A stretch of 32,166 bases of DNA, from the NCBI GenBank assembly GCA_029007415.1, contig JAQXHT010000051.1:1-32166 (forward strand), read 5' to 3'. The notes under the pieces are model-generated. The model saw only the letters and a program-made list of their open reading frames with translations, had not been told where the DNA came from and made no database searches. A program made the position numbers and the translations under genes. This document shows positions 624 to 32,166 of this stretch, piece after piece (position 1 is the first letter of the stretch; each line of letters starts with the position of its first letter). The stretch comes from a bacterium (lineage in GTDB: Bacteria > Bacillota_I > Bacilli_A > RF39 > UBA660).

Positions 624-641
624 TTTATATTCAACTCTTTA

Positions 642-797: not shown

Positions 798-1008
798 GCT
801 GTCAATTTAGATTTTCTATTATAATCGATTCCTTTATAAGATCTAAGCTTATAATTTATTTCTTTATAAGTAATTTCTTTTATTGGCAACTTAAATAAAG
901 TTGTTAATTCTTCTTTTATTTCTTCAAACACTTTAAACCTCCCGTTTTGATTGATATAATATCATGTTTTATAGGAAATTGCAAAATATAATCTTACAGT
1001 AACAAGTA

Positions 1009-1440: not shown

Positions 1441-1513
1441 CTAATAACTCCTTCTTATTTTATATTAAAAACTTATTTCCATTAATATTTTGGAAATAAG
1501 TTTTATTATAATA

Positions 1514-2938: not shown

Positions 2939-2947
2939 ATTTTCCTC

Positions 2948-4102
2948 CTAATGAACATAAAATATTCCCATATAGATTAAAAAGGCTAAGTAAAGAAGAC
3001 AAGTAATCGCTCCATTTACTCTTTCAAAAGTGCTACTTTTATATTGAACACCAACAGCAGTTGTCATAAAGACACCACCGATTAAACCACCAATATGTGC
3101 AGCATTATCAATTCCTGGTACAAGAAAACCTAAGATAAGGTTTAAAGCTATTAAAGGAATTATCTGACTTTTAATGACTGTTCCTAAGTAAACACGGTAG
3201 TGATAACCAAAGTAAACCATTGAACCAAGAAGTCCAAAGATAGCTCCACTTGCTCCAACACTAACACTAGTGCTAGAAACAATAATGGATAGTAGTGAAG
3301 CAGTTACGGCACTAAATAAGTAAACAAGTAAATATTTCCATCTACCAAGAAAACTTTCTAATTGAACACCAATAATCCATAAAGCATACATATTGAAAGC
3401 TAAATGAGCAATATTAGCATGAACAAAGGTACCTGTTAATAAACGGTAATATTCCCCTTGTTTAATATAAGGACCAAATACTGCTAACTCTCTAAAGACA
3501 TCATCACTTTTCCCAAGTAATAAAGGAACAAAGAAAAGAGCAACATTTAAAAATACTAAGATAGCAGTAATAATTGCTTTCTTTGGCATAAATATTTTAT
3601 CCGTTTTCGTATGGTCTTGATAGTTATGTTCATTTATTTCATCAGTTATCTTAATAAATAAATCCGCACCTGTTTCTTTATTTTTGCTAATATTTTTATA
3701 TAAATCTGGATAAGCTTCTAATAATAATTTATTATTCTTAACATCTTTTTCATCAGTTATATGAACAGCTCTTCCTCTTTTTGGTAACTCTTTAGTAAGG
3801 TCTACACTACTTCCTAGATTTAAAAAGATACTTAAGACATTTAGTCTAAAAGAAAATGTTTTAGCTTTAATTTTCTTTATTATACGATTAGTTTTAAAAA
3901 CATCAAACTTATATTGTTCTTCATTATGGATATGACCGATTACTATTCTTATTATTTCACAATCTTCATCTAAATTTTCTAACCAAATCTCATCATCTAC
4001 ACCATTTAATACTATTGGTGTATAATTCTTTTCAGTTATAAAATAATGAAGAAGTTTCATAGCAATCATATTAGTGTCATCTATTTCAAGCACATTATTC
4101 AT
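2948..4102 (-). CDS. Rhomboid family intramembrane serine protease (GluP/YqgP-like)
   Basis: HLAFNM, GASGAIFG, AHIGG motifs; N-terminal soluble domain. Confidence 0.93.
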   Translation of the reverse strand: MNNVLEIDDTNMIAMKLLHYFITEKNYTPIVLNGVDDEIWLENLDEDCEIIRIVIGHIHNEEQYKFDVFKTNRIIKKIKAKTFSFRLNVLSIFLNLGSSVDLTKELPKRGRAVHITDEKDVKNNKLLLEAYPDLYKNISKNKETGADLFIKITDEINEHNYQDHTKTDKIFMPKKAIITAILVFLNVALFFVPLLLGKSDDVFRELAVFGPYIKQGEYYRLLTGTFVHANIAHLAFNMYALWIIGVQLESFLGRWKYLLVYLFSAVTASLLSIIVSSTSVSVGASGAIFGLLGSMVYFGYHYRVYLGTVIKSQIIPLIALNLILGFLVPGIDNAAHIGGLIGGVFMTTAVGVQYKSSTFERVNGAITCLLYLAFLIYMGIFYVH

Positions 4103-14371: not shown

Positions 14372-17320
14372 TTATATGATTTCTTCTTTATTTTCAATTG
14401 CTACTCTAACTAGTTTTGAAACTCCTGACTCTTGCATCGTAATTCCATATAGAGTATCAGCATATTCCATCGTTTTCTTTTTATGGGTGATAATTAAAAA
14501 CTGGGTTTTATTTTTATAATGTTCTAGATATTTACCAAACTGAGTAACATTTGCTTCATCTAAAGCAGCTTCTACCTCATCAAAAATACAGAATGGTACT
14601 TTTCTAATATTTAATATTGCAAATAACAAACTAATAGCAGTTAGAGTTTTTTCACCACCTGATAATAGTTGAATAGTTGATAGTTTTTTTCCTGGTGGTG
14701 AAGCGATTATCTCAATACCCGTTGTTAATAAATCATCTGGATTAGTTAGTTTTAAGTCAGCACTTCCACCATGAAACATCTTAGAGAAAACTATTTTAAA
14801 TTCTTCTTTAATTTCTTCAAAAGTCTTTAAGAATTCATCTTTCATTACTTGGTCTAGTTCTCCCATTATCTCTAATAAAGTTCCTTCTGCTTTTTCCAAG
14901 TCTTCTTTTTGATGTAGTAAAAATTCATATCTTGTCTTTACTCTATCATACTCTTCTATCGCTTGTAAGTTAACCATACCTAAATCTTTAATAATCATTT
15001 TATATTGATTAACTAGCTTTCTTGATTCTTCTACTTCTTCTGTTAATTGATAATCATTTCTAGCTTTTTCATAAGTCATTGTATATTCTTCTGATAAAGT
15101 TTGTAAATAACTATTAAGTTTAATATCAATTCTTGATAATTCTATTTCCAAGTTTTTCATTGTATCTTGTTTTTTCTTTAGAATTCTACCTTCATAAGTA
15201 TCTTCATCTTCAAAGCTAGCAATGTTACTTTTAAGAGTTTTTAATTTATTATCAAGAAAACTCTTCTTTTGTTCAAGTTTTTCCTTATAGGTACTCTTCT
15301 TATAGAAAGCTTCAATTAGTTCTTTTTCTTTTTCATCAAAACTATCAGTGGAAGCTTCTAATCTTTTAATTGATTCATTTTTTCTAGTAAGACTTTGTTT
15401 TAATTCACTATATCTTTTTTCCTTTTCAGTAATAGTATCTTTAATGCTTTCTAGCTCTTTAGCTAGATTATAGTAAATATCTTCAATTGTAGTAATTTTC
15501 TCTTCTGTTTCTTTAATATCTAATAATACTTTACTCCTTGATTTAGTTAGTGCTTGATAAGTTCTCCGTAAAGACTCTATTTCTTGTCTTATCATTACAG
15601 AACTTCTTCCTTTATAGAAAGTTCCACCCGTCATAGAACCACCTGAGTTGATAACATCACCATCAAGAGTTACTATTTTATAGCGATTAGCAGTGTATCT
15701 TGCTATTTGAATAGCACTATCCATATCTTTAGCTAAGACAACAAGACCAAATTGGTTATAAATTACATCTTTATATTTTTCTTCGGTTTTAATTTTATCT
15801 GCTAAGATACCACAATAACCATTAACTTTTTCTAACTGACTTTTTACTTCTACCGGAATATATCGTGGTTTAATGACTGTCAAAGGGAAGAAAGTTGCTC
15901 TTCCTTTCTTTTTATTTTTTAAGTTTGCAATTGCTTCTTTAGCACAAGTTTCATCTTTTACTAAGACAAAGTTTTTACTAGCTGCTATGGCTATATCTAA
16001 AGCTTTAGCATAAATATCATCAGTTGTAACAACATTACCAATCGTATCATAGATTCCTTTTAGCGATTCTTCTTTTAAAATATAGCGAATAACTTCTGGT
16101 AGATTAGAACCCTTCTCTTCTTCACTTACTAAAAAGTTAATCTTATTCTTATAGCTCAACTGGTCTTGATCTATTTTACTATATTCACTTAGGTAGTTTT
16201 TCTTAGCTATTTTAGTTGAATCTAATTCTTTCTTTTTAGTTGTTACTTCTTCTTCTTTTTCTTTTACTTCTTCTTTTAAGTTTGTAAGTTCTTCTTCTAA
16301 AAGTGCTAGTTCTTTTTTATCTTTCGATTGTTCTGTTAAAAGAAGACGTAACTCTTCTTCGCTTTCTCCTTTTTCTTTTTTACTACGTTCTAGTTTAAAT
16401 AGTTCTAAACTTCCTTCTTGTCTTACAACTTCCTCAGCAGTTTTTATTAATTCATTCTGAACAAAAGTTATTTCTTTTTGTAGTTCATCTTCTTCTTGTT
16501 TAAACTTTAAAAGCTTACTATCTCTGACATTTTCTTCTTTTAATGCTAAAGATATTTCTTCATCTAACCTATGTTTTTCTTCTTTTTTTAGTTTTTCTTC
16601 TTCTGTTAAATGATATATGTCATAAGCAAGTAATGCTATTTCTAAAGATTCTAACTTTTTCTTATATTCTAAATATTTTTTAGCTTCTTCGCTTTGTCTT
16701 TTCAAAGGAGTTACTTGTAGTTCTAACTCCGTTATAATATCTTGCACTCTATCTAAGGCTTCATGAGTACGGTCTAATTTTCTTAAAGCTTCTTCTTTTC
16801 GTTTCTTGTATTTTAAGATACTAGCAGCTTCTTCAAAGATAAGACGTCGTTCATCTTTACTTTCACTTAGTATCTTTTGTACTTCACCTTGACCAATGAT
16901 ATTGAAGGACTCTCTTCCAATACCACTATCTAAAAATAGATTTAAAATATCTTTCAAACGACATTTTTGATTATTCAAAAAGTATTCATTTTCACTACTT
17001 CTAAATACACGTCTTTTAATTGATACTTCTGTATAAGGTATTGGTAAATAATGATCATTATTATCAAAAACAAGTTCCACCGAAGCGACATTTTTCATTT
17101 TTCTTGAAGCACTTCCGACAAAGATGACGTCACTCATAGCGCCGTCACCTCTTAAAGTTTTAACTGATTGTTCTCCTAAAACCCATCGAACCGCATCAAC
17201 GATATTACTTTTTCCACTACCATTCGGTCCAACAATACAGGTCGTTTCATCATTTAATACTATATCTATTTTATCAGCAAATGATTTAAAACCATTCACT
17301 ACTATTTCTTTTAAATACAT
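14372..17320 (-). CDS. smc: Chromosome segregation ATPase SMC
   Basis: GPNGSGKSN, hinge GRATFFPL and GGSMTGG, LSGGEK, DEVEAALD. Confidence 0.96.
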   Translation of the reverse strand: MYLKEIVVNGFKSFADKIDIVLNDETTCIVGPNGSGKSNIVDAVRWVLGEQSVKTLRGDGAMSDVIFVGSASRKMKNVASVELVFDNNDHYLPIPYTEVSIKRRVFRSSENEYFLNNQKCRLKDILNLFLDSGIGRESFNIIGQGEVQKILSESKDERRLIFEEAASILKYKKRKEEALRKLDRTHEALDRVQDIITELELQVTPLKRQSEEAKKYLEYKKKLESLEIALLAYDIYHLTEEEKLKKEEKHRLDEEISLALKEENVRDSKLLKFKQEEDELQKEITFVQNELIKTAEEVVRQEGSLELFKLERSKKEKGESEEELRLLLTEQSKDKKELALLEEELTNLKEEVKEKEEEVTTKKKELDSTKIAKKNYLSEYSKIDQDQLSYKNKINFLVSEEEKGSNLPEVIRYILKEESLKGIYDTIGNVVTTDDIYAKALDIAIAASKNFVLVKDETCAKEAIANLKNKKKGRATFFPLTVIKPRYIPVEVKSQLEKVNGYCGILADKIKTEEKYKDVIYNQFGLVVLAKDMDSAIQIARYTANRYKIVTLDGDVINSGGSMTGGTFYKGRSSVMIRQEIESLRRTYQALTKSRSKVLLDIKETEEKITTIEDIYYNLAKELESIKDTITEKEKRYSELKQSLTRKNESIKRLEASTDSFDEKEKELIEAFYKKSTYKEKLEQKKSFLDNKLKTLKSNIASFEDEDTYEGRILKKKQDTMKNLEIELSRIDIKLNSYLQTLSEEYTMTYEKARNDYQLTEEVEESRKLVNQYKMIIKDLGMVNLQAIEEYDRVKTRYEFLLHQKEDLEKAEGTLLEIMGELDQVMKDEFLKTFEEIKEEFKIVFSKMFHGGSADLKLTNPDDLLTTGIEIIASPPGKKLSTIQLLSGGEKTLTAISLLFAILNIRKVPFCIFDEVEAALDEANVTQFGKYLEHYKNKTQFLIITHKKKTMEYADTLYGITMQESGVSKLVRVAIENKEEII

Positions 17321-17460: not shown

Positions 17461-17531
17461 TTTAAAGTTACTTAGATTAATTTCTCTAATCATATTACTA
17501 TCCACTTTATTAGTACTATCAATAATAGATA
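17461..17531 (+). pseudogene. Remnant of small hydrophobic peptide gene (copy A)
   Basis: LKLLRLISLIILLSTLLVLSI; lacks promoter, RBS and start; 1-nt deletion before the homologous stop. Confidence 0.7.
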
Positions 17532-17532
17532 A

Positions 17533-17642
17533 TAAAAAGGCACTCTTCATCAAGATAGAGTGTCACCCAAAATCTTTTTGAAGGAGACATTCACTACCAA
17601 ATAAATGTTCCTATTTTTTTATGTTATGCAAGTTCTCTTGCT
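17533..17642 (-). ncRNA. Putative antisense antitoxin sRNA A
   Basis: Minus-strand TTGTTA(17677-72)-17bp-TAATAT(17654-49) promoter; terminator hairpin 17539-17564 with U-tract; ends approximate. Confidence 0.55.
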
Positions 17643-17728
17643 ACATACATATTAGCACAACACTTATCATTTAACAAGGCATTTTGCTACGAGAAAAGTT
17701 CAAATATTAAAAAGTGTTATCTATTCAA

Positions 17729-17757
17729 TTGGTTAATTATCTTATCTATGTTATTAT
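17729..17757 (+). promoter_or_regulatory. Sigma-A-like promoter for peptide gene B
   Basis: TTGGTT-17bp-TATTAT with extended TG; conserved in copy C. Confidence 0.6.
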
Positions 17758-17825
17758 CTTTAACAGGAACATTTATAGATGAGTGTCATCCTTCTTATAT
17801 AAAACATATAAGGAGGTGGTGATTT

Positions 17826-17918
17826 ATGAAAACTAAGACTTTTATTCTAAAATTTCTTAGATTAATTTCATTAATCTTACTACTATCCACCTTATTGGTA
17901 CTAGCAGTAAAAAACTAA
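17826..17918 (+). CDS. 30-aa hydrophobic peptide, putative type I toxin (copy B)
   Basis: MKTKTFILKFLRLISLILLLSTLLVLAVKN*; aaggaggt SD paired in a hairpin with upstream ccttcttatat. Confidence 0.8.
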   Translation: MKTKTFILKFLRLISLILLLSTLLVLAVKN

Positions 17919-17919
17919 A

Positions 17920-18025
17920 ACAAAGACACTCTTCATTAAAGTAGAGTGTCAACAACAAACTTTGAAGGAGACATTCACTACCAAATAAATGTTCCTCTTT
18001 TTTATTTTATGCAAATTTATTTGCT
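17920..18025 (-). ncRNA. Putative antisense antitoxin sRNA B
   Basis: TTGTTA(18060-55)-17bp-TAATAT(18037-32); terminator hairpin 17925-17950; ends approximate. Confidence 0.55.
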
Positions 18026-18111
18026 ACATACATATTAGCACAATACTAACTTATTAACAAGTAATTTTACTACGGAAAAAGTTTAAATATTTAAAAGTAT
18101 TATCTATTTAA

Positions 18112-18140
18112 TTGGTTAATTACTATATCTATGTTATTAT
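18112..18140 (+). promoter_or_regulatory. Sigma-A-like promoter for peptide gene C
   Basis: TTGGTT-17bp-TATTAT with extended TG. Confidence 0.6.
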
Positions 18141-18208
18141 CAATAACAGGAACATTTATAGCTGAGTGTCAACCTCCTGTCACAAAAAATAGCAAGGAGG
18201 TAGATAGA

Positions 18209-18301
18209 ATGAAAACTAAAACTTTTATTTTAAAGTTACTTAGACTAATTTCACTAATCTTGTTACTATCTACTTTATTAGTATTATCAATAAATAGATA
18301 A
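18209..18301 (+). CDS. 30-aa hydrophobic peptide, putative type I toxin (copy C)
   Basis: MKTKTFILKLLRLISLILLLSTLLVLSINR*; aggaggt SD complementary to upstream acctcct; differences from copy B are mostly synonymous. Confidence 0.8.
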   Translation: MKTKTFILKLLRLISLILLLSTLLVLSINR

Positions 18302-18407
18302 TAAAAAGGCACTCTTCATTAAAGTAGAGTGTCAACAAAACATTATGAGGTGACATTCACTTCCAAATAAATGTTCCTCTTTTTTATTTTATGCAAATTC
18401 ATTTGCT
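18302..18407 (-). ncRNA. Putative antisense antitoxin sRNA C
   Basis: TTGTTA(18442-37)-17bp-TAATAT(18419-14); terminator hairpin 18308-18333 with U-tract; ends approximate. Confidence 0.55.
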
Positions 18408-18563
18408 ACATACATATTAGCATAATACTAACTTATTAACAAGTAATTTTACTACGAGAAATACTATAACTTTTTTCTTTATCATTTTAAAATATATTAC
18501 GAAAGAAAGTAATATCACATTTTTCCATTACGTTACTATTTCTAACATATTTTGTATATAATT

Positions 18564-18607: not shown

Positions 18608-19876
18608 CTAGTTATTTTTAAATTCGAAATAGAAGTCTAGTATTCTGACCATATCACCATCTTGAGCGCCCATTTCTTCTAACTTTTCATCGATTCCCAT
18701 TCTTCTTAATTTCTTAGCAAAGCGTAACATTCCTTCTTCAGTACTAAATTTAGTCATTTTGAATAGTTTTTCTACTTCTTCACCTTTTATAACGAAACAG
18801 TCATCTTCTTTTTCAATGGTGAATGGTTCTTCCTCTTTAAATTTATATAAAACATAATCTTCATAATCATCATTTTCATATAAATCGACTTCTCTATTTT
18901 TAGATACTATCTCTTCTAAGTAATCAACCACTTCTTGAAGACCAGTTTTTTCAAAAGCTGATATTGCAAAGATTTTCTTATCTTTAATATTTTCTTTTAA
19001 GATATTTAGTTTTTCTTCACTTCCTGCTACATCCATTTTGTTTGCTACAACAACCATGTCTTTTGCCATTAACTTTTCGTTAAAAGCTTTTAATTCATTA
19101 TTGATTAATTTATAGTCATTAAGTGGATCTTCGCGAGACATATCTAAAACGTGAAGTAAAACTTTAGTTCTTTCGATATGTTTTAAAAATCTATCACCTA
19201 AGCCATCACCTTTACTAGCTCCTTCAATTAATCCTGGTAAATCTGCCATAACAAATGTATCACCATTAGTTGCTCTTACCACTCCCAAGTGGGGATGAAG
19301 GGTTGTAAATGGATAATCAGCTATTTTGGGTTTTGCTTTTGAAACACTAGAAATTATAGTACTCTTTCCAACACTAGGAAAACCAACTAAACCAACATCA
19401 GCTAAAAGCTTTAATTCTACTTTTATTTCACGTTCTTCACCTGGTTCACCATTTTCAGAAAAATTAGGAGCAGTATTAGTTTGCGTTTTAAAAGCAGTGT
19501 TACCACGTCCTCCACGTCCTCCATGTGCTACAACAAAAGATGAATCTTTTCCTTTTAAGTCTGCTAAAACAAGACCGGTATCCATATCGGTTATTACCGT
19601 ACCTTGTGGTACTTTAACAACAATTGGTTCCCTACTCTTCCCATGTTGATTTTTACCTTTACCGTTTTCTCCTTTTTCTCCTTTAATTAACTTTTGATAG
19701 CGTAAATCAAGTAAAGTGTGAAGTCCTTCATCTACTTTAAAGATGATATCAGCTCCGTGGCCTCCATTTCCACCATAAGGTCCACCATAAGCGATATATT
19801 TTTCTCTTCGAAAAGCAGTACAACCATCTCCACCATTTCCTGCTTTTACTTTTAATACTACTTCATCTACAAACAT
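18608..19876 (-). CDS. obgE: GTPase ObgE
   Basis: Gly-rich Obg domain, GFPSVGKST, DYPFTT, DLPG, NKMD. Confidence 0.97.
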   Translation of the reverse strand: MFVDEVVLKVKAGNGGDGCTAFRREKYIAYGGPYGGNGGHGADIIFKVDEGLHTLLDLRYQKLIKGEKGENGKGKNQHGKSREPIVVKVPQGTVITDMDTGLVLADLKGKDSSFVVAHGGRGGRGNTAFKTQTNTAPNFSENGEPGEEREIKVELKLLADVGLVGFPSVGKSTIISSVSKAKPKIADYPFTTLHPHLGVVRATNGDTFVMADLPGLIEGASKGDGLGDRFLKHIERTKVLLHVLDMSREDPLNDYKLINNELKAFNEKLMAKDMVVVANKMDVAGSEEKLNILKENIKDKKIFAISAFEKTGLQEVVDYLEEIVSKNREVDLYENDDYEDYVLYKFKEEEPFTIEKEDDCFVIKGEEVEKLFKMTKFSTEEGMLRFAKKLRRMGIDEKLEEMGAQDGDMVRILDFYFEFKNN

Positions 19877-25629: not shown

Positions 25630-26169
25630 TTATTTTGTTTTATTAAGAATTAGAATAAACTTATCGCCATATTTTCTTTCTTTATATATGGTATAATATT
25701 CACCATAAACAAATTTGTCTTTACTACTACTTTCTAAAATAACTAAACCATCAGTATTTAACAAATCATTCTTTTCTATTAGAATAAGAGCTTCTTTAAT
25801 ATAATCTGTTTTATACGGTGGATCAATAAAGATTAAATCATATTTATTAGTTGTTTCCTTCAAGAATTTACGGAAATCAATTAAATAGACAGTGTCTAAC
25901 TTTTCCCCTAAATTAGTTAAATTATTCTTGATAGTTTTAATAGCTATTTTGTTTTCATCAATGAAGGTACAACTCTTTCCTCCTTCACTTAATGCTTCTA
26001 AACCTAGATTACCACTACCTGCAAAAAGGTCAAGACAATTACTATCTTTAATATAATTTTGAATCATGGCAAATAAAGATTCTTTCACCCTATCCATAGT
26101 AGGTCTTGTTCCTTCTATATCATAACCAATAATATTTCTTCCTTTATATTTACCACTAATTATTTTCAT
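25630..26169 (-). CDS. rsmD: 16S rRNA (guanine(966)-N2)-methyltransferase
   Basis: TRPTMDRVKESLF, LDLFAGSG, DPPY. Confidence 0.95.
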   Translation of the reverse strand: MKIISGKYKGRNIIGYDIEGTRPTMDRVKESLFAMIQNYIKDSNCLDLFAGSGNLGLEALSEGGKSCTFIDENKIAIKTIKNNLTNLGEKLDTVYLIDFRKFLKETTNKYDLIFIDPPYKTDYIKEALILIEKNDLLNTDGLVILESSSKDKFVYGEYYTIYKERKYGDKFILILNKTK

Positions 26170-26422
26170 CTTTAATCTCTCCTAAGTATTTATTACAAGA
26201 TAATATCAAAAAGTTAAGTCGATTTTCTAGCATTTTATATTTTTTGTATTTCTCATCATTATATATTTCTTTTCTAATCGTTTCATTATAAGTATTATGA
26301 TACTCATCTATCTTAGCAATTAGTTCTTTATCTTCATAAATACTAGCAAGACTTTTCTTAATTTCAAACTTTATCTCCGAATTATCAATCATATCAACTA
26401 GTTCATAATAAGTTCCAATCAT
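26156..26422 (-). CDS. Small helical protein, possibly YlbF/YmcA-like
   Basis: Overlaps rsmD start; Y..YK.LEN.LN pattern; family uncertain. Confidence 0.5.
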   Translation of the reverse strand: MIGTYYELVDMIDNSEIKFEIKKSLASIYEDKELIAKIDEYHNTYNETIRKEIYNDEKYKKYKMLENRLNFLILSCNKYLGEIKDENN

Positions 26423-26472
26423 CTGTTAACCACTTCCGTCATTATTATAACAAATACTTAATCAAGAGAAAA

Positions 26473-27600
26473 CTATCTTTTCATTTTTAAATCATTACGA
26501 TAGCAGAAACTACCGCTATCAGCACTTTTTAGAAAGCCATTATAACTTGCTAAGGTTTGTTCTAACTTTTCTGGTTCATGTTTTCTAACGTATTTTACTC
26601 GTTTTTTTATTTTTCGTTTAGTCTTGCCATTTATTAGCATTAATAGTCTTTTATTCTTTAAAACAAAGCGATACCCTAGAAAACAAAAGCCATGATGAAT
26701 TTCTACTATCTGTGTCTTTCTATTAAGTTTTAGTTTTACTTCATCTAATTTCTTTTCTATTTCTTTTAAACAGTATTTAAGATATTCTCTATCTTCATGA
26801 AATAAAATGAAATCATCCATATATCTAACGTAGCATTTTATTCTTAGCTTTTCTTTAATAAAATGATCTAAGTCATTTAAATAATAAACTGCTAATATTT
26901 GACTAGTCATATTACCTATTGGTAGTCCTTTTCCTTTTTGATAAAGTGGTATTGATTCAAGAGACTTAATATGACTTTCGCAATCTCTAATACCTAGTTT
27001 TTTAACTCTTTCAATTTCACTTTCTACTGATTTTTTAATTTCTTCATTAACATAATTATAATTAGTACTAATAATTATTTCTTTTACCATATTAAATATA
27101 CGTTCATCTTTAATAAGCTTAGTTAGCTTATCAAGAAGTATTTCTTGGTCTATTGAATAAAAGTATTTTGATATATCACATTTAAGTACATATATTTTAT
27201 CATGATTTTCCTTCATTTTATTAATGTACTTTTTCACATAATATATTCCTTTACTTGAACCCATAAGTGGTCTTGTAGCTACATTCATTGGTAGTAAAAG
27301 TGGATCAATTAAAGGAAAAAGAAAATAAGTACTAACTAAGTGATTAACTATTTTATCTGGCATTGTTTCACTCATAATCAAACGATATTTCGGCTCTTTA
27401 ATTATAAAGATATGATATTTTTGATGATGATAAGCTTCCTCTTTTAAGGTATTGTAAATTGACATAATATTGCAAGAAAAAAATAGTTCAAATATGAAAA
27501 TCTTATCCTTGTGTTTAGTATTTTTGCGAACGGTATTATAAACATTAGTAAGATTTTCTATCGTAACTACTTCTTCATAACTAAGTGCTTTGCTTTTCAC
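26473..27600 (-). CDS. DGR reverse transcriptase
   Basis: KCDISKYF, GLPIGNMTSQ (DGR-type GxxxSQ), YVRYMDDF, FLGY; 375 aa with no maturase or endonuclease domain. Confidence 0.95.
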   Translation of the reverse strand: MKSKALSYEEVVTIENLTNVYNTVRKNTKHKDKIFIFELFFSCNIMSIYNTLKEEAYHHQKYHIFIIKEPKYRLIMSETMPDKIVNHLVSTYFLFPLIDPLLLPMNVATRPLMGSSKGIYYVKKYINKMKENHDKIYVLKCDISKYFYSIDQEILLDKLTKLIKDERIFNMVKEIIISTNYNYVNEEIKKSVESEIERVKKLGIRDCESHIKSLESIPLYQKGKGLPIGNMTSQILAVYYLNDLDHFIKEKLRIKCYVRYMDDFILFHEDREYLKYCLKEIEKKLDEVKLKLNRKTQIVEIHHGFCFLGYRFVLKNKRLLMLINGKTKRKIKKRVKYVRKHEPEKLEQTLASYNGFLKSADSGSFCYRNDLKMKR

Positions 27601-27937
27601 TCCTAATCACCCCATAAGAAATTTTTCTGATTTCAATTAAAAAATTACTAACTGACTCGTACTTCTTATGGCTAATAATTTTTTTCTTATAACTAACATG
27701 CATATAATAATCGAGCATAGAAATTTGAATAACTAGTGCTTTTAGATATTTAAGTTTAATTCTATTAGTATCCTCGATTCGGTAAGAAAAAATATTTTCA
27801 ATTATCAAATACATAGTTTTTTCGATATTTTGTTTTAATATCACTTCATTTTTAGGATAGTTAATTAATTGTTTGTTAATATAATCAATCGTTTTTTCAC
27901 TATTAGATAAAAGTCTAAAACTATCATTGGAGTCCAT
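27581..27937 (-). CDS. avd: DGR accessory variability determinant (four-helix bundle)
   Basis: 118-aa basic helical protein with YPKNE..L and KIISHKKYE..EI.K..G pattern; overlaps RT start by 20 nt. Confidence 0.85.
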   Translation of the reverse strand: MDSNDSFRLLSNSEKTIDYINKQLINYPKNEVILKQNIEKTMYLIIENIFSYRIEDTNRIKLKYLKALVIQISMLDYYMHVSYKKKIISHKKYESVSNFLIEIRKISYGVIRSEKQST

Positions 27938-28331
27938 CGATAAACTCCTTAATTTTATTATAATTTTCAGAACTATTAGAAATTAACATTTCAATTCTTT
28001 TCATTAATAATTCATGGGAACATTTGCTGTAATAACTTTTCTGAGCAATAGCTGATATATCTTTATATAGATTATCATCACTCATATAACTAGTTATTTC
28101 TTCATTTTCTACGATGTAAAAAGAAATATTCTTATCACGTAAATTTTTTGTTACTTTAGTAAGTGCTGCTACTGGGAATCCTAATTTTTCATTATTAATT
28201 TGGTATGAAAAAAGATAATTCATAGTTATAGCATCAAATCCAAAAGTAACATAAAAACTGCCTACTTTTAAGAGAACTATTTCTTCTTGATGTTGTTTTT
28301 TCAACTCTTCATACTTTTCTTTTACTTTCAT
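27924..28331 (-). CDS. Stand-alone MutS domain I-like DGR accessory protein
   Basis: Y..LK......LLKVGSFYVTFGFDA and GFP motifs; start at ATG 28331 after aggag, giving 135 aa. Confidence 0.8.
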   Translation of the reverse strand: MKVKEKYEELKKQHQEEIVLLKVGSFYVTFGFDAITMNYLFSYQINNEKLGFPVAALTKVTKNLRDKNISFYIVENEEITSYMSDDNLYKDISAIAQKSYYSKCSHELLMKRIEMLISNSSENYNKIKEFIDGLQ

Positions 28332-28348
28332 TTTACTCCTATAATAGT

Positions 28349-28734
28349 TATGCCAAAGATTAATCTTGTTTCCAATCTTTAGATTATGAGTTATATCATT
28401 ACTTCCTCTAGTTACCAACCTTAATCAATAACATACGGTTAGATTAGCAATAATTATACTAATTCGTAGTAGGAATCTGGACGGGCCCCGAAGGAATTCG
28501 TGACGTTGTTCCAATGATTCAGACTGCCTGAAGGATTCACGTTCCAAACGTTCGCATTAGAGTTGTTAGACTCAAAGTTAGACGGAGACAGCGAAGTTCT
28601 AAGCTCTGAATGCAACACAAACCTGAAAGGTCCGTTAGTAGATTAACCTCACTTACTATATTTTTTCAATGTATCAATATTTTCTCAAATAATAATATTA
28701 GCTAAGAAAAGTATACATTATTTTTTCTGGCATA
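28349..28734 (-). ncRNA. DGR template cassette 1 (TR1 28477-28592)
   Basis: TR reads LSPSNFESNNSNANVWNVNPSGSLNHWNNVTNSFGARP; bounded by tatgcca/tggcata. Confidence 0.88.
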
Positions 28735-29363
28735 TAGTTTTTAAAGTAGATTTTAGTTAAATTGCAAGAATTACTAATTTACCTATATATGATGTTAGTT
28801 TTATTTTATAGATAAACGGATACTTACATGTCATATGACAGATATTTTTAAGTAAAACTATGCATGACACAAATTATTTTTCACTACTAGCATATTAGTA
28901 AATATGCCTTACTAGCTCCTATGGTATTTAATTATCTTTAGTAGTTAAATTTAACTGTAATAAACAACTATATATATTATTATCAGTCTTTTTCATAATC
29001 CGTACGAGGTGTCATTACCCCTGTTTCTTTCCGTTAGTATCTATTAGTGTCAAATAATAGATATATTACTCCGCTATAAGTTTTGTATTTTGAGTTATTT
29101 TCTTAATTTATATTAGTATTAAAATAATACAAAAATAAATTTCTTTCTATATCTTTTAATAATAGTAAAAAGTATTTTAAAGATTATAGATAAAGTCATT
29201 ACTCAAAACAAAATTACCATATTTTACCATAGATTTCCCCTCATCATCCATAATAATGGTAACATATCGTTTGAGAATTTTCAATATTTATTCTCAAGTA
29301 TGAATATATTTATACAAGAAAAAAAGCAAAAACTTTTTTAATAATTTTTACTTTTGTTATTGT

Positions 29364-29742
29364 TATGCCAAAGATTAATCTTGTTTCCAATCTTACAGAT
29401 TATGAGTTGGCTCATTACTTCCTCTAGTTATTAACCTTAATCAATAACATACGGTTAGATTAGCAATGATTATACTAATTTGTAGTAGGAATCTGGACGG
29501 GCCCCGAAGGAATTCGTGACGTTGTTTCCGTTATTCAAGCTGCCTGAAGGATTCACGTTCCAAACATTTGCATTAGAGTTGTTTGAATTGAAGTTAGACG
29601 GAGACAGCAAACTTCTAAAAACTAATACTAGAAGGAAAAAACCGTTATTAGACTAACCTTATTTATATTCTTTTAATGTACCAATATTTTCTTGAATAGT
29701 TAACACCAGTCAAAAAAAGTATACATCATATTTCTTGGCATA
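29364..29742 (-). ncRNA. DGR template cassette 2 (TR2 29493-29608)
   Basis: TR reads LSPSNFNSNNSNANVWNVNPSGSLNNGNNVTNSFGARP; bounded by tatgccaa/ttggcata. Confidence 0.88.
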
Positions 29743-29774
29743 GTATTTAAAAACTACTTTGTCTTAATTATGGT

Positions 29775-30156
29775 TATGCCAAAGATTAATCTTGTTTCCA
29801 ATCTTACAGATTATGAGTTATCTCATTACTTCCTCTAGTTACCAACCTTAATCAATAACATACGGTTTAGATTAGCAATAATTGTACTAACTTGTAGTAG
29901 GAATCTGGACGGGCCCCGAAGGAATTCGTGACGTTATTCCAGTCAATCAGACCGCCCGAAGGAAGGACGTTCCAAACGTTCGCATTAGAGTTGTTTGAAT
30001 TGAAGTTAGACGGAGACAGCAAACTTCTAAAAACTAATGCTAGAAAAAGTCTAAAACCGTTATTAGATTAACCTTTATCATTTTCTTTTAATGTACCAAT
30101 ATTTTTTTAAATAATTAGTTTAGCTAAAAAACGTATACATTATTTTTTTTGGCATA
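29775..30156 (-). ncRNA. DGR template cassette 3 (TR3 29905-30020), cognate template of the visible VR
   Basis: TR reads LSPSNFNSNNSNANVWNVLPSGGLIDWNNVTNSFGARP; 15 mismatches to VR, all at TR adenines. Confidence 0.95.
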
Positions 30157-30232
30157 ACATAGGAAAAATAATACTCCTTTATTTTTTTAAATGCAAGCGA
30201 TTTTATATTTTAAAAATAAACAATTATAGCTT

Positions 30233-30591
30233 GTGTCAAAGATTAATCTTGTTTCCAATCTTACAGATTATGAGTTAGCTCATTACTTCCTCTAGTTAGT
30301 AACCTTAATCAATAACATACGGTTTAGATTAGCAATGATTATACTAATTTGTAGTAGGAATCTGGACGGGCCCCGAAGGAATTTGTTACATCACGATTAT
30401 TCAGGCTGCCTGAAGAAAACACGCTCCAAATATCTATTATAGAATAATTAGAATTGAAATAAAACGGAGACAGCAATATCTTTAATGCTTAGAACCTCGC
30501 ATTAGATTAACCTTGTTATTATTGCAATGTACAAATATTTTCTTAGCAATAATTATTAACTGAGAAAAGTATACATTATTTTTTCTGACAC
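30233..30591 (-). ncRNA. DGR template cassette 4 (TR4 30362-30474)
   Basis: TR reads LSPFYFNSNYSIIDIWSVFSSGSLNNRDVTNSFGARP (one codon shorter); bounded by gtgtca/tgacac. Confidence 0.82.
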
Positions 30592-30627
30592 TTTTGATAG
30601 AAAAATTATATTTTTATTTAAAATTAA

Positions 30628-31011
30628 TATGCCAAAGATTAATCTTGTTTCCAATCTTTTAGATTATGAGTTAGCTCATTACTTCCTCTAGTTATTAACC
30701 TTAATCAATAACATACGGTTTAGATTAGCAATGATTATACTAATTTGTAGTAGGAATCTGGACGGGCCCCGAAGGAATTCTCGACACTACCCCAATGATT
30801 CAACATGCCTGAAGGATTCACGTTCCAAACATTCGCACTAGAGTTATTTGAATTGAAGTTAGACGGAGACAGCGAACTTCTAAAACTAATGCTAGAATGG
30901 ATCAAAACCGCTATTAGATTAACCTTATATTATTTTTTATTATCAATGCACCAATATTCTTACAAATAGTATTATTAGTTATAAGATGTATACATTATTT
31001 TTTCTGGCATA
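30628..31011 (-). ncRNA. DGR template cassette 5 (TR5 30758-30873)
   Basis: TR reads LSPSNFNSNNSSANVWNVNPSGMLNHWGSVENSFGARP; bounded by tatgcca/tggcata. Confidence 0.88.
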
Positions 31012-31036
31012 AAATAATTTTGATATTTATATAGTA

Positions 31037-31399
31037 GTGCCAAAGATTAATCTTGTTTCCAATCTTACAGATTATGAGTTAGCTCATTACTTCCTCTAGT
31101 TACCAACCTTAATCAATAACATACGGTTAGATTAGCAATGATTATACTAATTTGTAGTAGGAATCTGGACGGGCCCCGAAGGAATTATTGACGTTATTCC
31201 AGTCAAGACTGCCTGAAGGCTGCACCGTCCAAACGTTAGCGTGAGAATTACCTGAGTTGAATTTAGACGGAGACAGTGAAAAAGAAATCCAAGTGAGAGA
31301 ACCGTTTTTAGATTAACCTTTTCTTTATGTTCAATGTACCAATATTTTTTCTGAATAATTAATTTAATCAAAGAAAGTATACATTATTTTTTCTGGCAC
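31037..31399 (-). ncRNA. DGR template cassette 6 (TR6 31165-31277)
   Basis: TR reads LSPSKFNSGNSHANVWTVQPSGSLDWNNVNNSFGARP (one codon shorter); bounded by gtgcca/tggcac. Confidence 0.86.
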
Positions 31400-31441
31400 G
31401 TTTTAAGTAATATAAATTTTTTCAAATATATTTTATAGATG

Positions 31442-31810
31442 TATGCCAAAGATTAATCTTGTTTCCAATCTTTAGATTATGAGTTAACTCATTACTTCCT
31501 CTAGTTATCAACCTTAATCAATAACATACGGTTAGATTAGCAATGATTATACTAATTTGTAGTAGGAATCTGGACGGGCCCCGAAGGAATTTGCAACATA
31601 CGTCCAATCATTCAGACTGCCCGAAGGATTCACGTTCCAAACGTTCGACTGTGAGTTGTTTGAATCGAAGTTAGACGGAGACAGCGAAAGGACAAACAAA
31701 CAGAAAGAGTCCGTTAGTAGATTAACCTTATTTATATTTATTTAATGCATCAATATTCTTACAAATAATTATATTAGTTGCAAGATGTATACATTACCTT
31801 TTCTGGCATA
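31442..31810 (-). ncRNA. DGR template cassette 7 (TR7 31570-31685)
   Basis: TR reads LSPSNFDSNNSQSNVWNVNPSGSLNDWTYVANSFGARP; bounded by tatgcca/tggcata. Confidence 0.88.
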
Positions 31811-31816
31811 AATTAA

Positions 31817-31842
31817 AGGCAAAATGATGAGTCATTTTGCCT
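31817..31842 (-). terminator. Perfect hairpin after target gene (terminator and/or DGR homing hairpin)
   Basis: aggcaaaatga-tgag-tcattttgcct: 11-bp stem, 4-nt loop, 5 nt past the stop codon. Confidence 0.7.
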
Positions 31843-31847
31843 AGAAA

Positions 31848-32165
31848 CTAACTTATTGAAACAACATATGGATTTAAAGCAGTTCCATCTCCCTTGGTTA
31901 TCAGTGTATCAGCCTTTAGGTTGATAACTGGACGGGCCCCGAAGGAAGACGAGACGTAAATCCAGTCAAGCAGACCGCCCGAAGGAAGGACGTACCAAAC
32001 GTACGCAAGAGAGTAGTATGAAGAGAAGTAAGACGGAGACAGCGTCCAGAAATATTGGCCATTATATAGATAATAATTACTATTTGCTGTATTATATACT
32101 CCTCCAGCCATTGCTACTTCATCGGCTGTGATAAGTGAAACTGGATAGTCTAGTTTGGCACTTGC
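31848..32165 (-). CDS. DGR target protein, C-terminal part (probable C-type lectin-fold variable domain); 5' end outside window
   Basis: Frame open to window edge: ASAKLDYPVSLITADEVAMAGG...FWTLSP[VR]GARPVINL; WxxS...GxRP framing is typical of CLec DGR targets. Confidence 0.9.
   Translation of the reverse strand, partial: ASAKLDYPVSLITADEVAMAGGVYNTANSNYYLYNGQYFWTLSPSYFSSYYSLAYVWYVLPSGGLLDWIYVSSSFGARPVINLKADTLITKGDGTALNPYVVSIS
31928..32043 (-). repeat. DGR variable repeat (VR)
   Basis: 116 bp colinear with TR3; encodes LSPSYFSSYYSLAYVWYVLPSGGLLDWIYVSSSFGARP. Confidence 0.95.
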
Positions 32166-32166
32166 A

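Follow-up and report, generated by a model that had tools for sequence, protein, structure and literature searches.

The locus and its genes

The window, that is, the whole stretch of 32,166 nt that was analysed, carries a diversity-generating retroelement (DGR) on its minus strand (Table 1). The reverse transcriptase (RT) gene is on the same strand as the target gene and seven template repeats (TRs), which lie about 750-4200 nt from it. It is accompanied by an Avd-like accessory gene and by a small accessory gene with a MutS domain I; this MSL accessory class, together with avd, is described in PMC5758913. The MutS-like gene is likely to start at the ATG at about 28333, downstream of an AGGAG motif, rather than at the TTG at 28418. 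A search of the window against Rfam gave zero matches at either threshold. The terminator-like hairpin 3' of the target gene is kept in nine related loci (L043, L051, L060, L073, L077, L119, L122, L143 and L150), and none was found behind the remote targets on contigs C88, C25 and C77.

A preliminary description of this DNA had read the cassettes on the plus strand, starting at tatgcca. Since the DGR lies on the minus strand, that "start" is the RNA 3' end, and the plus-strand tatgcca is the complement of the RNA 3' arm. In what follows, arm A denotes the RNA 5' arm and arm B the RNA 3' arm.

Table 1. Features of the DGR locus. Parts of the U1 cassette were placed from the alignment.
Feature	Position	Strand	Parts or support	Ends on the plus strand
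DGR RT gene	26473..27600	-	Pfam RVT_1, E 1.5e-18
Avd-like accessory gene	27581..27937	-	Pfam bAvd-like, E 1.9e-07, 32 bits, under the curated 40-bit cut-off
MutS-domain-I small accessory gene (MSL type)	27924..28333	-	Pfam MutS_I, E 5.2e-08, 33.5 bits (cut-off 20.6)
U1	28349..28734	-	A 28727-28734, H2 28667-28720, P1-5' 28640-28649, TR1 28477-28593, P1-3' 28357-28366, B 28349-28356	tatgcca 28350-28356 / tggcata 28728-28734
U2	29364..29742	-	A 29735-29742, H2 29674-29728, P1-5' 29650-29659, TR2 29493-29609, P1-3' 29372-29381, B 29364-29371	tatgccaa / ttggcata, 8 bp
U3	29775..30156	-	A 30149-30156, H2 30089-30142, P1-5' 30065-30074, TR3 29905-30021, P1-3' 29783-29792, B 29775-29782	gttatgccaaa 29773-29783 / tttggcataac 30147-30157, 11 bp
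U4, variant arms (RNA 5' GUGUCA, 3' UGACAC)	30232..30592	-	A 30585-30592, H2 30525-30578, P1-5' 30504-30513, TR4 30362-30475, P1-3' 30240-30249, B 30232-30239	gtgtca 30233-30238 / tgacac 30586-30591
U5	30628..31011	-	A 31004-31011, H2 30944-30997, P1-5' 30916-30925, TR5 30758-30874, P1-3' 30636-30645, B 30628-30635	tatgcca / tggcata
U6, variant arms (RNA 5' GUGCCA, 3' UGGCAC)	31036..31400	-	A 31393-31400, H2 31332-31386, P1-5' 31310-31319, TR6 31165-31278, P1-3' 31044-31053, B 31036-31043	gtgcca 31037-31042 / tggcac 31394-31399
U7, first in RNA direction	31442..31810	-	A 31803-31810, H2 31743-31796, P1-5' 31719-31728, TR7 31570-31686, P1-3' 31450-31459, B 31442-31449	tatgcca / tggcata
Hairpin 3' of the DGR-adjacent target gene	31817..31842	-	Terminator-like site; core AAAATGACTCWTCATTTT kept across genera
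Variable repeat, 3' end of target gene	31928..32044	-	ORF continues past the window end

Template repeats and variable repeats

Mismatches between variable repeats (VRs) and TRs were concentrated at A of the minus strand. TR3 differed from the window VR at 15 template A and 1 non-A position, from the VR on contig C88 at 13 A and 0 non-A positions, and from the VR on contig C25 at 13 A and 6 non-A positions; TR1 differed from the VR on contig C77 at 12 A and 2 non-A positions. Judged by these mismatches, cassette U3 is the donor of the window VR. Contig C8 carries a degenerate copy that differs from each TR at 22 or more non-A positions. The explanation that we favour below includes the reading of all seven cassettes as complete template RNAs of a single minus-strand DGR.

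Covariation of the terminal inverted repeat

All seven window cassettes have complementary ends of 6-11 nt, with the coordinates and sequences given in the preliminary description, and in U4 and U6 both ends have indeed changed together. U4 carries two such compensatory changes; U6 carries one, which it has in common with U4 and which may represent a single event. The variant arms of U4 recur in two further assemblies of this species, L147 and L148. The seven units are paralogues; their inverted repeats therefore do not count as seven independent events, and the information resides in the variants. When the 3' arms were permuted among the seven window units, 120 of 5040 arrangements (1 in 42) matched the real Watson-Crick count. 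The corresponding odds were 1 in 6 for L153, and L143 was uninformative (6/6). Few independent variants lie behind the covariation of the terminal stem.

The analysis was extended to an alignment of 19 permuted cassettes, taken from the window and from four related loci. In it, the terminal stem of 8 bp was paired in 96.7% of 152 cells, and pairing dropped to 22-43% when one partner was slid by 1-3 columns. Two-sided changes were present at 3 of the 8 pairs (14/500 shuffles reach 3), double-change cells numbered 5 against 1.0 expected (0/500 shuffles), and the covariation score of 0.213, against 0.147 +/- 0.015 for shuffled alignments, was reached by 0/500. The variants comprise U-A to G-C in U4 and U6, C-G to U-A in U4, U-A to C-G in L153_c, with a U.G intermediate in L143_1, and U-A to A-U in L122_1; the compensatory changes thus recur in a second species, which has extra arm variants of this kind. 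One pair of the stem is G.U in 10 of the 19 cassettes. Over the whole predicted cassette structure, 252 G.U cells were counted against 10 A.C cells, a count biased in favour of the structure, which had been predicted on the same strand and alignment. Within this predicted structure, the excess of G.U over A.C supports RNA-level selection on pairing, as the preliminary description had proposed from the compensatory changes.

Predicted folding of the cassettes

In MFE predictions of single cassettes, the two ends were paired in 7/7. The minus-strand fold of U3 reached -88.4 kcal/mol (z = -3.06, 0/100 shuffles as good) and the plus-strand fold -81.0 kcal/mol (z = -2.6). RNAalifold, applied to the 19 permuted cassettes, placed the terminal stem (columns 10-17:415-422) directly against a helix termed P1 (106-115:405-414), with the hairpin H2 between the two on the 5' side. 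The consensus structure was paired in 97.4% of 1493 cells, against just 35-48% in slid controls, and contained 23 double-change pairs against 8.8 in shuffled alignments (0/500 reach 23).

P1 is a long-range helix around the TR, 10-11 bp in the window, and covaries strongly; in the 19 permuted cassettes, 99.5% of its cells form pairs. Across 117 distinct units with 42 different 3' strands, the upstream region of a unit bound its own 3' strand with -12.9 kcal/mol and foreign ones with -8.3 kcal/mol (0/5000 shuffles).

Standard layout in relatives and homology of the terminal stem

The relatives are members of the same family, gut Bacilli with small genomes, and represent other genera within it. 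Their standard RNA runs in the order P1-5', TR, conserved spacer, P1-3', H1, A-rich linker, H2. H1 is a short local hairpin between P1 and H2; of 59 distinct standard segments, 57 form this hairpin, with stems that differ widely in sequence, and its mean dG was -3.0 against -1.03 +/- 0.15 for shuffled sequences (0/200; 63 segments, 4 of them permuted). In H2, a larger hairpin, the internal loop AC/UAUUG separates the outer stem from an inner stem that varies; the outer stem changes between ATATAG/CTATAT and AATGTAT/ATACATT around the constant AC/TATTG loop. P1, H1 and H2 all covary.

In the window clade, H2 is found on the 5' side of the TR, and the strands of H1 are separated, one at each end of the cassette. 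The correspondence is seen from the flanks of H1, which read AAGGTTAATTCC-TTGGCATATGCC-TAAAAAGATGATATAGAC in the standard locus L105 and AAGATTAACCT-ATGGTTGTTACCAG-AAAATATAATATAGAT in L102; the window counterpart is AAGATTAATCT-TTGGCATA // TATGCCAG-AAAAAATAATGTATAC. The neighbours agree between the window and L102, L105, L053, L084 and others, with P1-3' directly before and the A-rich linker and H2 after. By this equality of the flanks on both sides, the A:B stem is homologous with H1, and the same comparison makes the terminal stem a split form of H1, which in related DGR RNAs is a local hairpin. The arrangement of the window clade would be described by a circular permutation that turned H1 into an end-to-end closing stem; this is part of our preferred explanation.

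Tandem arrays of template cassettes are common in the family, and relatives with the standard frame have up to at least 12 templates per array. The permuted loci L150 and L143 have 1 and 3 cassettes, L153 at least 7 (6 complete and 1 at the contig end) and the window 7. L150, in which the order is A-H2-body-B with the MutS-like gene directly after, establishes that a single-cassette permuted locus exists. The first cassette of L122 has 9 perfect bp (AAUGCCAAA/UUUGGCAUU), its B arm being followed by 4 nt and then the next P1-5' strand; given its A-poor, VR-like TR, this cassette may be inactive. Comparison of L143 with L153 revealed arms visibly reshuffled between cassettes by unequal crossing-over.

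Pairing within the cassette or across the spacer

The same arms could pair locally, each B arm with the A arm of the next downstream cassette, across the spacer. The locus would then be a standard-frame array in which the H1 loops have grown to 25-630 nt and the hairpin may act as a double-strand RNase site at which a long precursor is cut into units; the A-H2 module before U7 would be an orphan, and U1 would be left without H1 and H2. We consider this arrangement rather unlikely, although several findings speak for it. H1 is local in nearly all standard segments. In equilibrium (partition-function) folding of two-cassette RNAs, local B(n):A(next) pairing together with outer A:B pairing was preferred in 3 of 5 pairs; at those junctions P(local) was 0.80, 0.79 and 0.98 and P(within) at most 0.03, whereas within-cassette pairing won for U5-U4 alone and neither formed for U4-U3. 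At one L141 junction a 9-bp run, with 10 of 11 positions paired, closes a 16-nt loop, and the within-cassette pair of the decayed cassette there has a U.U. In L143/L144 the cassette-2 B arm (UGACAUA) has a C.A mismatch with its own A arm; it forms an A-U pair with a base that has changed in the partly degenerate A arm that follows, that of cassette 3. Given that promoter-like sites were not in excess over chance (21 found, 21.3 expected) and that terminator-like sites between cassettes were not found, a polycistronic precursor is plausible, and the array may be one long transcript; one RNA library had matches, in two short contigs.

The arms themselves fit this local pairing less well. Mismatches fall inside the 6-bp core at 2 of the 6 window junctions (one at U6|U5, two at U4|U3) and two more junctions rely on wobbles, whereas each of the 7 within-cassette stems has a Watson-Crick stretch of 6 bp or more, with 8/8 in the A:B helix of U2. 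The arms of L153_c (CAUGCC/GGCAUG) match inside the cassette and clash as A.C locally. Within-cassette pairing gave 111 Watson-Crick, 12 G.U and 5 mismatched cells of 128, with 12 of 16 helices free of mismatches; local pairing of the same arms gave 82, 13 and 9 of 104, with 7 of 13 free of mismatches. The spacers are unconserved and 25 to 630 nt long, against H1 loops of 3-13 nt elsewhere. The single cassette of L150 has neither a downstream A arm nor a downstream H2. In the window, the RBS of the MutS-like gene comes after the U1 B arm, so that under local pairing U1 would have neither hairpin, yet TR1 has a cognate diversified VR; at the other end, the A arm of U7 lies 7 nt past the target-gene hairpin and is thus without an upstream B arm. 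In L150 and at both ends of the window array, the end-to-end stem is the only pairing available. The stem joining the RNA ends, as the preliminary description had pictured it, is supported where no other partner is available, and predicted folding favours the spacer-spanning partner in three of the five two-cassette RNAs.

A DNA-level role, which the preliminary description had kept as its alternative, is highly improbable in our view, whether the inverted repeat is taken to mark where a duplicated or mobile piece of DNA begins and ends (as a recombination site, a cruciform or the terminal inverted repeats of a small mobile element) or as a hitch-hiker of concerted evolution with unselected pairing: the cassette count does vary between strains and species, the arms are reshuffled by recombination, and exchanges with their ends in the spacers would carry both arms of a cassette together, but the flanks have no consistent direct repeat or target-site duplication by eye (ACTA is on both sides in U1 alone), no recombinase, integrase or transposase family matched any of the 8 window ORFs scanned, no recombinase or transposase matched the six scanned array-adjacent ORFs (RT, Avd-like, MutS-like, RsmD-like, YlbF-like and target 3' end), the helix has G.U where the other strand would have A.C, which fits a one-strand RNA and not DNA, and the arms have as their homologue an RNA hairpin that, across genera, keeps its pairing while its stem varies freely in sequence.

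Proposed role of the closing stem

Taken as a whole, the locus is probably best explained by permuted template RNAs, each closed by A:B pairing. Compensatory variants of A:B were observed directly; that the stem forms within the cassette in vivo and is needed for cDNA synthesis we infer. In the window clade the 3' module would have been circularly permuted, so that H2, preceded by the H1 3' strand (arm A, UAUGCCAG), came to lie 5' of P1, while the H1 5' strand (arm B, UUGGCAUA) was retained right behind the P1-3' strand at the cassette 3' end. Pairing of A with B across about 350-375 nt would close the cassette, and stacking of this helix on P1 would return H2 to the junction of the standard RNA. 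The stem would thus have an architectural role, rebuilding a P1/H1/H2 junction presumably needed by the RT-Avd complex. In a multi-cassette transcript, where P1 and the spacers are nearly identical, it would also help each cassette to fold on itself. The permutation may have arisen from a tandem duplication whose outer parts were later lost. A fuller version is put forward tentatively, at slightly less than even confidence: H2, as the protein-binding hairpin of the 3' side, has moved 5' and been re-tied by an end-to-end helix derived from H1, one set of RT, Avd and MutS-like proteins serves seven templates, and the arm variants (U4, U6, L153_c) are insulators that force self-folding in a long transcript.

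DGRs are, to our knowledge, the most extreme natural protein diversifiers, and they are being turned into directed-evolution tools. We know of structural detail on what the template RNA needs outside the TR for one phage element only. In the present family, one RNA architecture with strongly covarying P1, H1 and H2 is available in more than 100 natural versions, a single RT serves arrays that range from 2 to at least 12 complete templates, and a natural permutation would show which helices must meet in space. This makes testable how the RT-Avd complex chooses a template, whether cis-priming needs the closing stem, and whether the template RNA is modular and self-contained, which would be useful for multiplexed engineered DGRs. 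Should the local hairpin be the true state, the stem would become a candidate site for the processing of a precursor with several templates; no description of this for DGRs was found in the literature searched.

Comparison with known systems

The closest characterised counterpart used here is the DGR of Bordetella phage BPP-1, in which, according to Handa et al. (bioRxiv 10.1101/2023.10.23.563531), the template needs flanking structured RNA. There, an 11-bp duplex called 'cPRT Stop' joins a segment upstream of the TR to the downstream spacer, a stem-loop lies just past the TR, and the RT is bound by a second stem-loop, long and interrupted, at the 3' end; upstream:spacer duplexes, averaging 13 bp, were predicted in 207 of 278 Avd-containing DGRs (10.1101/2023.10.23.563531). 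The window cassettes have the same general layout, with P1, a hairpin after the TR, and H2 with its long stem and internal loop, and through P1 they show the upstream-of-TR:spacer pairing characteristic of 'cPRT Stop'. By analogy, P1 may correspond to cPRT Stop and H2 to the RT-binding stem-loop. The placement differs: the BPP-1 spacer strand (Sp59-70) lies 2 nt past the priming adenosine, in mid-spacer, whereas the P1-3' strand of the window is near the spacer 3' end. Further marks of 'cPRT Stop' are a short stem-loop and A-minor adenosines behind the spacer strand, and cDNA that stops right ahead of the duplex. BPP-1 has a single TR and the window 7 complete cassettes, and the Introduction and Results of Handa et al. 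describe neither an end-to-end stem nor a permuted order.

Cassette arrays bounded by short, imperfect, covarying inverted repeats also recall integron attC sites and the terminal inverted repeats of mobile elements. Such an identity was rejected on the lack of an integrase or transposase match among the scanned ORFs and of a consistent target-site duplication by eye, on the one-strand G.U pairs and on the homology of the arms to an RNA hairpin of single-cassette relatives.

Permuted genes occur among structured RNAs, for instance those of tRNA and of two-piece tmRNA. Their segments follow one another in rotated order but the helices are preserved: the new ends lie in what was a hairpin loop, the original ends having been fused, and the usual route is a tandem duplication from which the outer halves are then lost. 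No circular permutation of a retroelement template RNA was found in the literature searched. The window differs from permuted tmRNA and tRNA in that duplication has acted again on the permuted unit to form an array, and the ambiguity between within-cassette and local pairing follows from this.

In retrons, the inverted repeats a1 and a2 at the ends of the msr-msd template RNA pair, and the resulting stem organises the RNA for the RT. Paired inverted repeats at both ends of an RNA that templates reverse transcription are likewise what the window has, and the preliminary description had drawn this parallel. Retrons are also cited as a precedent for 2'-OH priming in 10.1101/2023.10.23.563531. The locus itself was rejected as a retron, having no msr/msd, no branching G context and no Rfam match, and its RT is assigned to the DGR type by the Avd-like gene and the TR/VR pairs that go with it. 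The likeness of the ends holds, but the closer analogue of a1/a2 is the much better supported P1, which lies just inside the terminal stem and does the bracketing of the template; the terminal stem lies outside P1 and also encloses H2. The resemblance to retrons, as an analogy of roles, is functional only.

A DGR locus with seven template cassettes

Seven direct repeats of ~365-390 nt each were delimited, with start-to-start distances of 1016, 411, 457, 396, 408 and 405 nt. The target gene lies upstream on the minus strand and runs off the window; 117 nt at its 3' end are a copy of the repeats' central portion. Compared with repeat 3 on the minus strand, this variable repeat (VR) differs at 15 template A and one other base. 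Copies on other contigs of the same genome showed A/non-A mismatches of 13/0 (C88 against repeat 3), 12/2 (C77 against repeat 1) and 13/6 (C25 against repeat 3). Such A-biased mismatches are the DGR signature and, judged from these alignments, the seven repeats represent seven template repeats (TR1 to TR7), each inside its own conserved flanking RNA (cassettes U1 to U7). The RNA strand of the cassettes is the minus strand, on which U7 comes first and U1 last.

In the genome assembly (1.26 Mb, 125 contigs, 77% complete), cognate VRs were found only for TR1 and TR3 (on C88, C25, C77 and the window), and none for TR2 and TR4-TR7. The copy on C8 is degenerate. Pfam returned no family for the target proteins (the 335-aa C-terminal part on C88 and the 105-aa part in the window), and Rfam none matching 26000-32166 at E up to 1 or the whole window at gathering score. 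In contigs from a public run, X4, that match three TR positions, nearly all differences from the TRs fall on T of the plus strand (T>A 8, T>C 6, T>G 10), the pattern expected if the contigs were diversified VR copies from a population of the window's organism.

The mechanical ORF of the MutS-like gene opens at a TTG inside U1. A start at the ATG near 28333, preceded by AGGAG and right after the 3' end of U1, is likelier and would give ~136 rather than 164 aa.

Features of the window and of the sequences compared with it
Feature	Position	Strand	Remarks
SMC gene	14372-17320		
Tandem repeat	17461-18461		383 bp, 2.6 copies, 84% matching; between the SMC gene and obg
obg	18608-19876		
Reverse transcriptase gene	downstream of array	-	RVT_1, E 1.5e-18
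Avd-like gene	downstream of array	-	bAvd-like, E 1.9e-07, under Pfam's own cut-off
MutS-domain-I small gene	27924-28418, downstream of array	-	MutS_I, E 5.2e-08
Template cassettes U1-U7	28349-31810	-	
U2/U1 spacer	28736-29363		628 nt
Matches of X4 contigs	28477-28593, 29905-30020, 31570-31686		on TRs
Matches of RNA-recorded contigs	28336-28488, 29911-30145, 31866-31900		0 differences, 12 differences and a 35-nt overlap, respectively
Target hairpin	31817-31842	-	
Target protein part	31848-32165	-	105 aa
Window VR	31928-32044	-	3' end of target gene

Ends and fold of the cassettes

The preliminary description had reported that each cassette is bounded by an inverted repeat whose two ends change together. 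The end sequences and coordinates were re-read and are as reported: in RNA orientation, arm A, UAUGCCA(G/A), opens each cassette and arm B, (U)UGGCAUA, closes it, with complementarity of 11 bases in U3 and 8 in U2. The joint changes were also borne out, as U4 carries GUGUCA/UGACAC and U6 GUGCCA/UGGCAC, altering one base pair two-sidedly in both and a second in U4. The U4 variant arms are also kept in L147 and L148, loci from two other assemblies of the same species.

When the cassettes were folded singly, the minimum-energy structure paired both ends in 7/7. The fold of U3 reached -88.4 kcal/mol (z = -3.06), and that of the plus strand was weaker (-81.0, z = -2.6). In the consensus fold, arm A is followed by an A-rich linker, a larger hairpin (H2), a linker and the 5' strand, AAGGUUAAUCU, of P1, a long-range helix bracketing the TR. 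Next come 20-45 variable nt, the TR, a conserved ~125-nt spacer with several small hairpins, and the P1-3' strand AGAUUAAUCUU, with arm B immediately after it. Given this order, P1 and the terminal stem formed by the two arms (A:B) are contiguous on the 3' side, with H2 between them on the 5' side. H2 of the window type has the outer stem AAUGUAU/AUACAUU, the internal loop AC/UAUUG and a variable inner stem. Another partner for P1-5', in the spacer's 5' half, was matched by eye (GGUUAAUCUAAUAACGG with CCGUAUGUUAUUGAUUAAGG) and rejected because in homologues (e.g., L014) complementarity is retained only to the 3'-terminal strand, and alifold picks that strand.

In L147 (minus orientation 515-3533), ~3 kb lie between the first A-H2 module and the remainder of cassette U7, reflecting either a real insertion or a mis-join via TR/VR similarity. 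The U2/U1 spacer of the window, which holds only short ORFs (≤37 aa), is homologous to the sequence after the last cassette in the related loci L143, L149 and L152, where a gene with an N-terminal hydrophobic helix follows; it looks like a remnant of a deleted gene's upstream region.

Related loci and the standard layout

A BLAST search of ~400 same-family genomes 'matched' 111 of 401, mostly through AT-rich 20-50-mers at query positions ~300-390, and nhmmer kept 8 of the 29 fetched loci as true homologues. The conserved-spacer pattern AGATTGGAAACAAGRTTA found 98 stretches in species-representative genomes, roughly 40% of them chance matches in other phyla; the true matches were in uncultured gut Bacilli/'Mollicutes'/'Tenericutes' assemblies. 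With a more specific pattern, 14 metagenome contigs were found, of which 11 were related and three (L140, L142 and L146) were not. In total, 124 units were delimited, 117 of them distinct.

In most genera, the unit starts with P1-5' (GGGNUAAUCU-like), often at a TATAAT-type promoter or directly after the target gene's hairpin, and continues with the TR, the spacer and P1-3'. It ends with a short local hairpin (H1), an A-rich linker and H2, plus a terminator in some arrays. In the H2 of this standard layout, the outer stem is AUAUAG/CUAUAU, and the AC...UAUUG-type internal loop is the same as in the window. P1 covaries strongly, with 42 different 3' strands among the 117 distinct units; mean binding to the own upstream region was -12.9 kcal/mol versus -8.3 for foreign strands, and 0/5000 shuffles attained the observed mean. 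H1 covaries as well: 57 of the 59 distinct standard segments form the hairpin despite diverse stems (GGC/GCC, GAAAUAG/CUAUUUC, GAGUU/AACUC, GAUGAUUU/AAAUCAUC), and its mean dG over 63 segments, among them 4 permuted ones included inadvertently, was -3.0 versus -1.03 ± 0.15 in shuffles (0/200).

This small-genome gut Bacilli family often has complete TR-plus-spacer cassettes in tandem: L113 has 12 pattern matches, L046, L133 and L135 have 6-8 units each, L119/L024 and L088 have 4, and L052 has 3. In several genera a separate TATAAT-like box and hairpin-plus-T-run accompany each array unit, which makes the units look like independent small RNA genes sharing one reverse transcriptase. A second multi-template layout places at least two modules of P1-5' strand plus TR in a row (L044, L053/L015, L064, L065, L105 and L138). 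There the conserved spacer, H1 and H2 occur after the last module only; thus, several TRs would have to share one spacer.

The closing stem as a probable split H1

Arm B of the window occupies the position of the H1 5' strand, directly after P1-3', and arm A that of the H1 3' strand, with the A-rich linker and H2 next. The standard loci read ...AAGGTTAATTCC-TTGGCATATGCC-TAAAAAGATGATATAGAC... (L105) and ...AAGATTAACCT-ATGGTTGTTACCAG-AAAATATAATATAGAT... (L102), and the window reads ...AAGATTAATCT-TTGGCATA and, elsewhere, TATGCCAG-AAAAAATAATGTATAC... These matching positions and flanks indicate that the terminal inverted repeat of the cassettes corresponds to H1 and that the connectivity differs: in the window the cassette body comes after arm A and H2, in the standard layout before them. 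By sequence comparison, then, the window layout appears to be a circular permutation of the template RNA: the new ends would come from breaking the H1 loop, and the former ends, behind H2 (3') and at P1 (5'), would have become linked. On balance, we consider the closing stem to be probably an RNA helix, namely H1 split in two by circular permutation of a DGR template RNA.

Pairing within or between cassettes

Since arms A and B are mutually complementary, arm B can also pair with arm A of the next cassette, 25-630 nt downstream. The main rival to a stem closing each cassette is therefore that the A:B helix forms locally, joining two adjacent cassettes, and may act as a site of processing; we regard this as a serious contender, but distinctly the less probable one. 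It has in its favour that H1 of the standard RNA is local, that one junction in L141 offers a 9-bp run with a 16-nt loop, and that one B arm of L143/L144 has a G-to-A change that mismatches the A arm of the same cassette but pairs with an altered base in the A arm of the following cassette, which is partly degenerate. When two-cassette transcripts were folded with the partition function, the local hairpin likewise reached probabilities of 0.80, 0.79 and 0.98 in three of the five neighbour pairs, with the outer A and B arms also paired. Within-cassette pairing won only in U5-U4 (0.97, 0.83), and in U4-U3 neither helix formed.

Pairing counts, which speak for the within-cassette stem, were made on three arrays with neighbours, leaving out near-identical copies from L096, L147 and L148. 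Within cassettes, 128 cells comprised 111 Watson-Crick, 12 G.U and 5 mismatched, and 12 of 16 helices were clean; local pairing gave 82, 13 and 9, respectively, in 104 cells, with 7 of 13 clean. Three single rows outside these counts (L141_2, L150_1 and L122_1) each had 8/8 Watson-Crick pairs. A second species contributed a new compensatory variant, CAUGCCAAA/UUUGGCAUG in L153_c (U-A to C-G), of which L143_1 is the U.G intermediate, and L122_1 has U-A changed to A-U. In an alignment of 19 of the 20 candidate permuted cassettes (the decayed L141_1 was left out), the terminal stem was 96.7% paired (22-43% in slid controls), with 5 doubly changed cells versus 1.0 expected (0/500 shuffles) and three doubly changed pairs (14/500), which upholds the covariation first described. 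Over the whole cassette structure, 23 pairs had double changes versus 8.8 expected (0/500).

The arms have clearly been reshuffled by unequal crossing-over, L143 being a three-cassette recombinant of an L153-like array. When the seven B arms of the window were dealt to the seven A arms, 120 of 5040 arrangements reached the true within-cassette Watson-Crick count (1 in 42). For L153 the corresponding odds are 1 in 6, and L143 gives no information; independent events are few.

Cassettes without a neighbour on one or both sides also speak for within-cassette pairing. L150, a close relative whose sequence reaches only 80 nt upstream of its one cassette, has in order the target hairpin, 27 nt, arm A, H2, the body, arm B and the ribosome-binding site of a MutS-like gene; no other partner for its arms is present. 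The window array ends likewise, with arm A of U7 7 nt after the target hairpin and arm B of U1 abutting the MutS-like gene, and TR1, at this end, has a diversified VR. U1 may be the original cassette, as it resembles the single cassette of L150. The first cassette of L122 has nine perfect pairs, AAUGCCAAA/UUUGGCAUU, and 4 nt after its arm B comes the P1-5' strand of the next cassette, which has a normal local H1 and H2. The TR of this first cassette (minus orientation ~6880-6990) is A-poor and VR-like; the cassette may be inactive, and may have arisen by recombination of a VR with a TR. The VR of the locus matches the TR of the second cassette, from which it differs mostly by A-to-N changes.

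The DNA-level role that the preliminary description offered as an alternative, or a non-functional origin of the inverted repeat, is very improbable given that the predicted structure holds 252 G.U cells (paired only in minus-strand RNA) versus 10 A.C (paired only on the other strand), that no recombinase or transposase was found among the 8 window ORFs scanned, and that no consistent direct repeat was seen by eye at cassette flanks. Pairing of 97.4% on the minus strand would drop to 81.2% on the plus strand, with the caveat that the strand counted was also the one used to derive the structure. All 19 cassettes have G.U at one P1 pair; at one pair of the terminal stem, 10 cassettes have G.U and the other 9 A-U. 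A mobile-element reading was dropped when target-site duplications, sought by eye, gave ACTA on both sides of U1 only.

Transcription of the array

Promoter-like sites were at chance (21 versus 21.3 ± 4.6 expected), and the two terminator-like sites were the target hairpin and one inside the VR, with none between cassettes. Promoter candidates picked by hand, namely TTGCAT-17-TATTAT upstream of U3 and TATAAA-like boxes 5-7 nt before P1-5', did not recur from cassette to cassette. In the arrays of L119, L113 and L135, from other genera, a TATAAT box precedes and a hairpin-plus-U-run follows every unit; the window's array has neither and may therefore be made as one precursor. Co-transcriptional folding of such a precursor would favour the within-cassette stem, because arm A of a cassette is present when its arm B emerges and that of the next cassette is not yet. 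Seven public runs contain part of the window, and contigs of four were compared. The matches in the one run on record as RNA gave no transcript starts or ends and do not prove transcription.

The target hairpin has the conserved core AAAATGACTC(A/T)TCATTTT and an outer stem covarying across genera, and is also present in L043, L051, L060, L073, L077, L119, L122, L143 and L150. In the window's genome, three remote targets that are clearly diversified (C88, C25 and C77) lack the hairpin, which ties it to the DGR locus and not to VR homing; candidate roles are those of a terminator, an attenuator or an RNA 5' element.

Comparison with known systems

In the DGR literature searched, nothing was found on tandem complete cassettes or a permuted DGR RNA, which may be listed in supplements. 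In two further papers, 'multiple TRs' means other things, and the survey of Roux et al. uses the word 'TRs' in its methods only (PMC8144416). MutS-like accessory genes are a known DGR class (PMC5758913). The closing stem belongs to a known kind, the cis-acting RNA of DGRs. As stated in a preprint (bioRxiv 10.1101/2023.10.23.563531), the BPP-1 DGR template requires 20 nt upstream and a 140-nt spacer downstream. Cryo-EM revealed two duplexes involving the spacer, one with the TR (the primer duplex) and one with the upstream segment ('cPRT Stop'), as well as two stem-loops: one right after the TR that binds Avd, and a long one at the 3' end that binds the RT. Upstream:spacer duplexes of this sort were predicted in 207 of 278 DGRs. 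By analogy with what is described there, P1 of the window's family would fit the general definition of the 'cPRT Stop' duplex, and its H2 appears to resemble the 3' protein-binding stem-loop of BPP-1.
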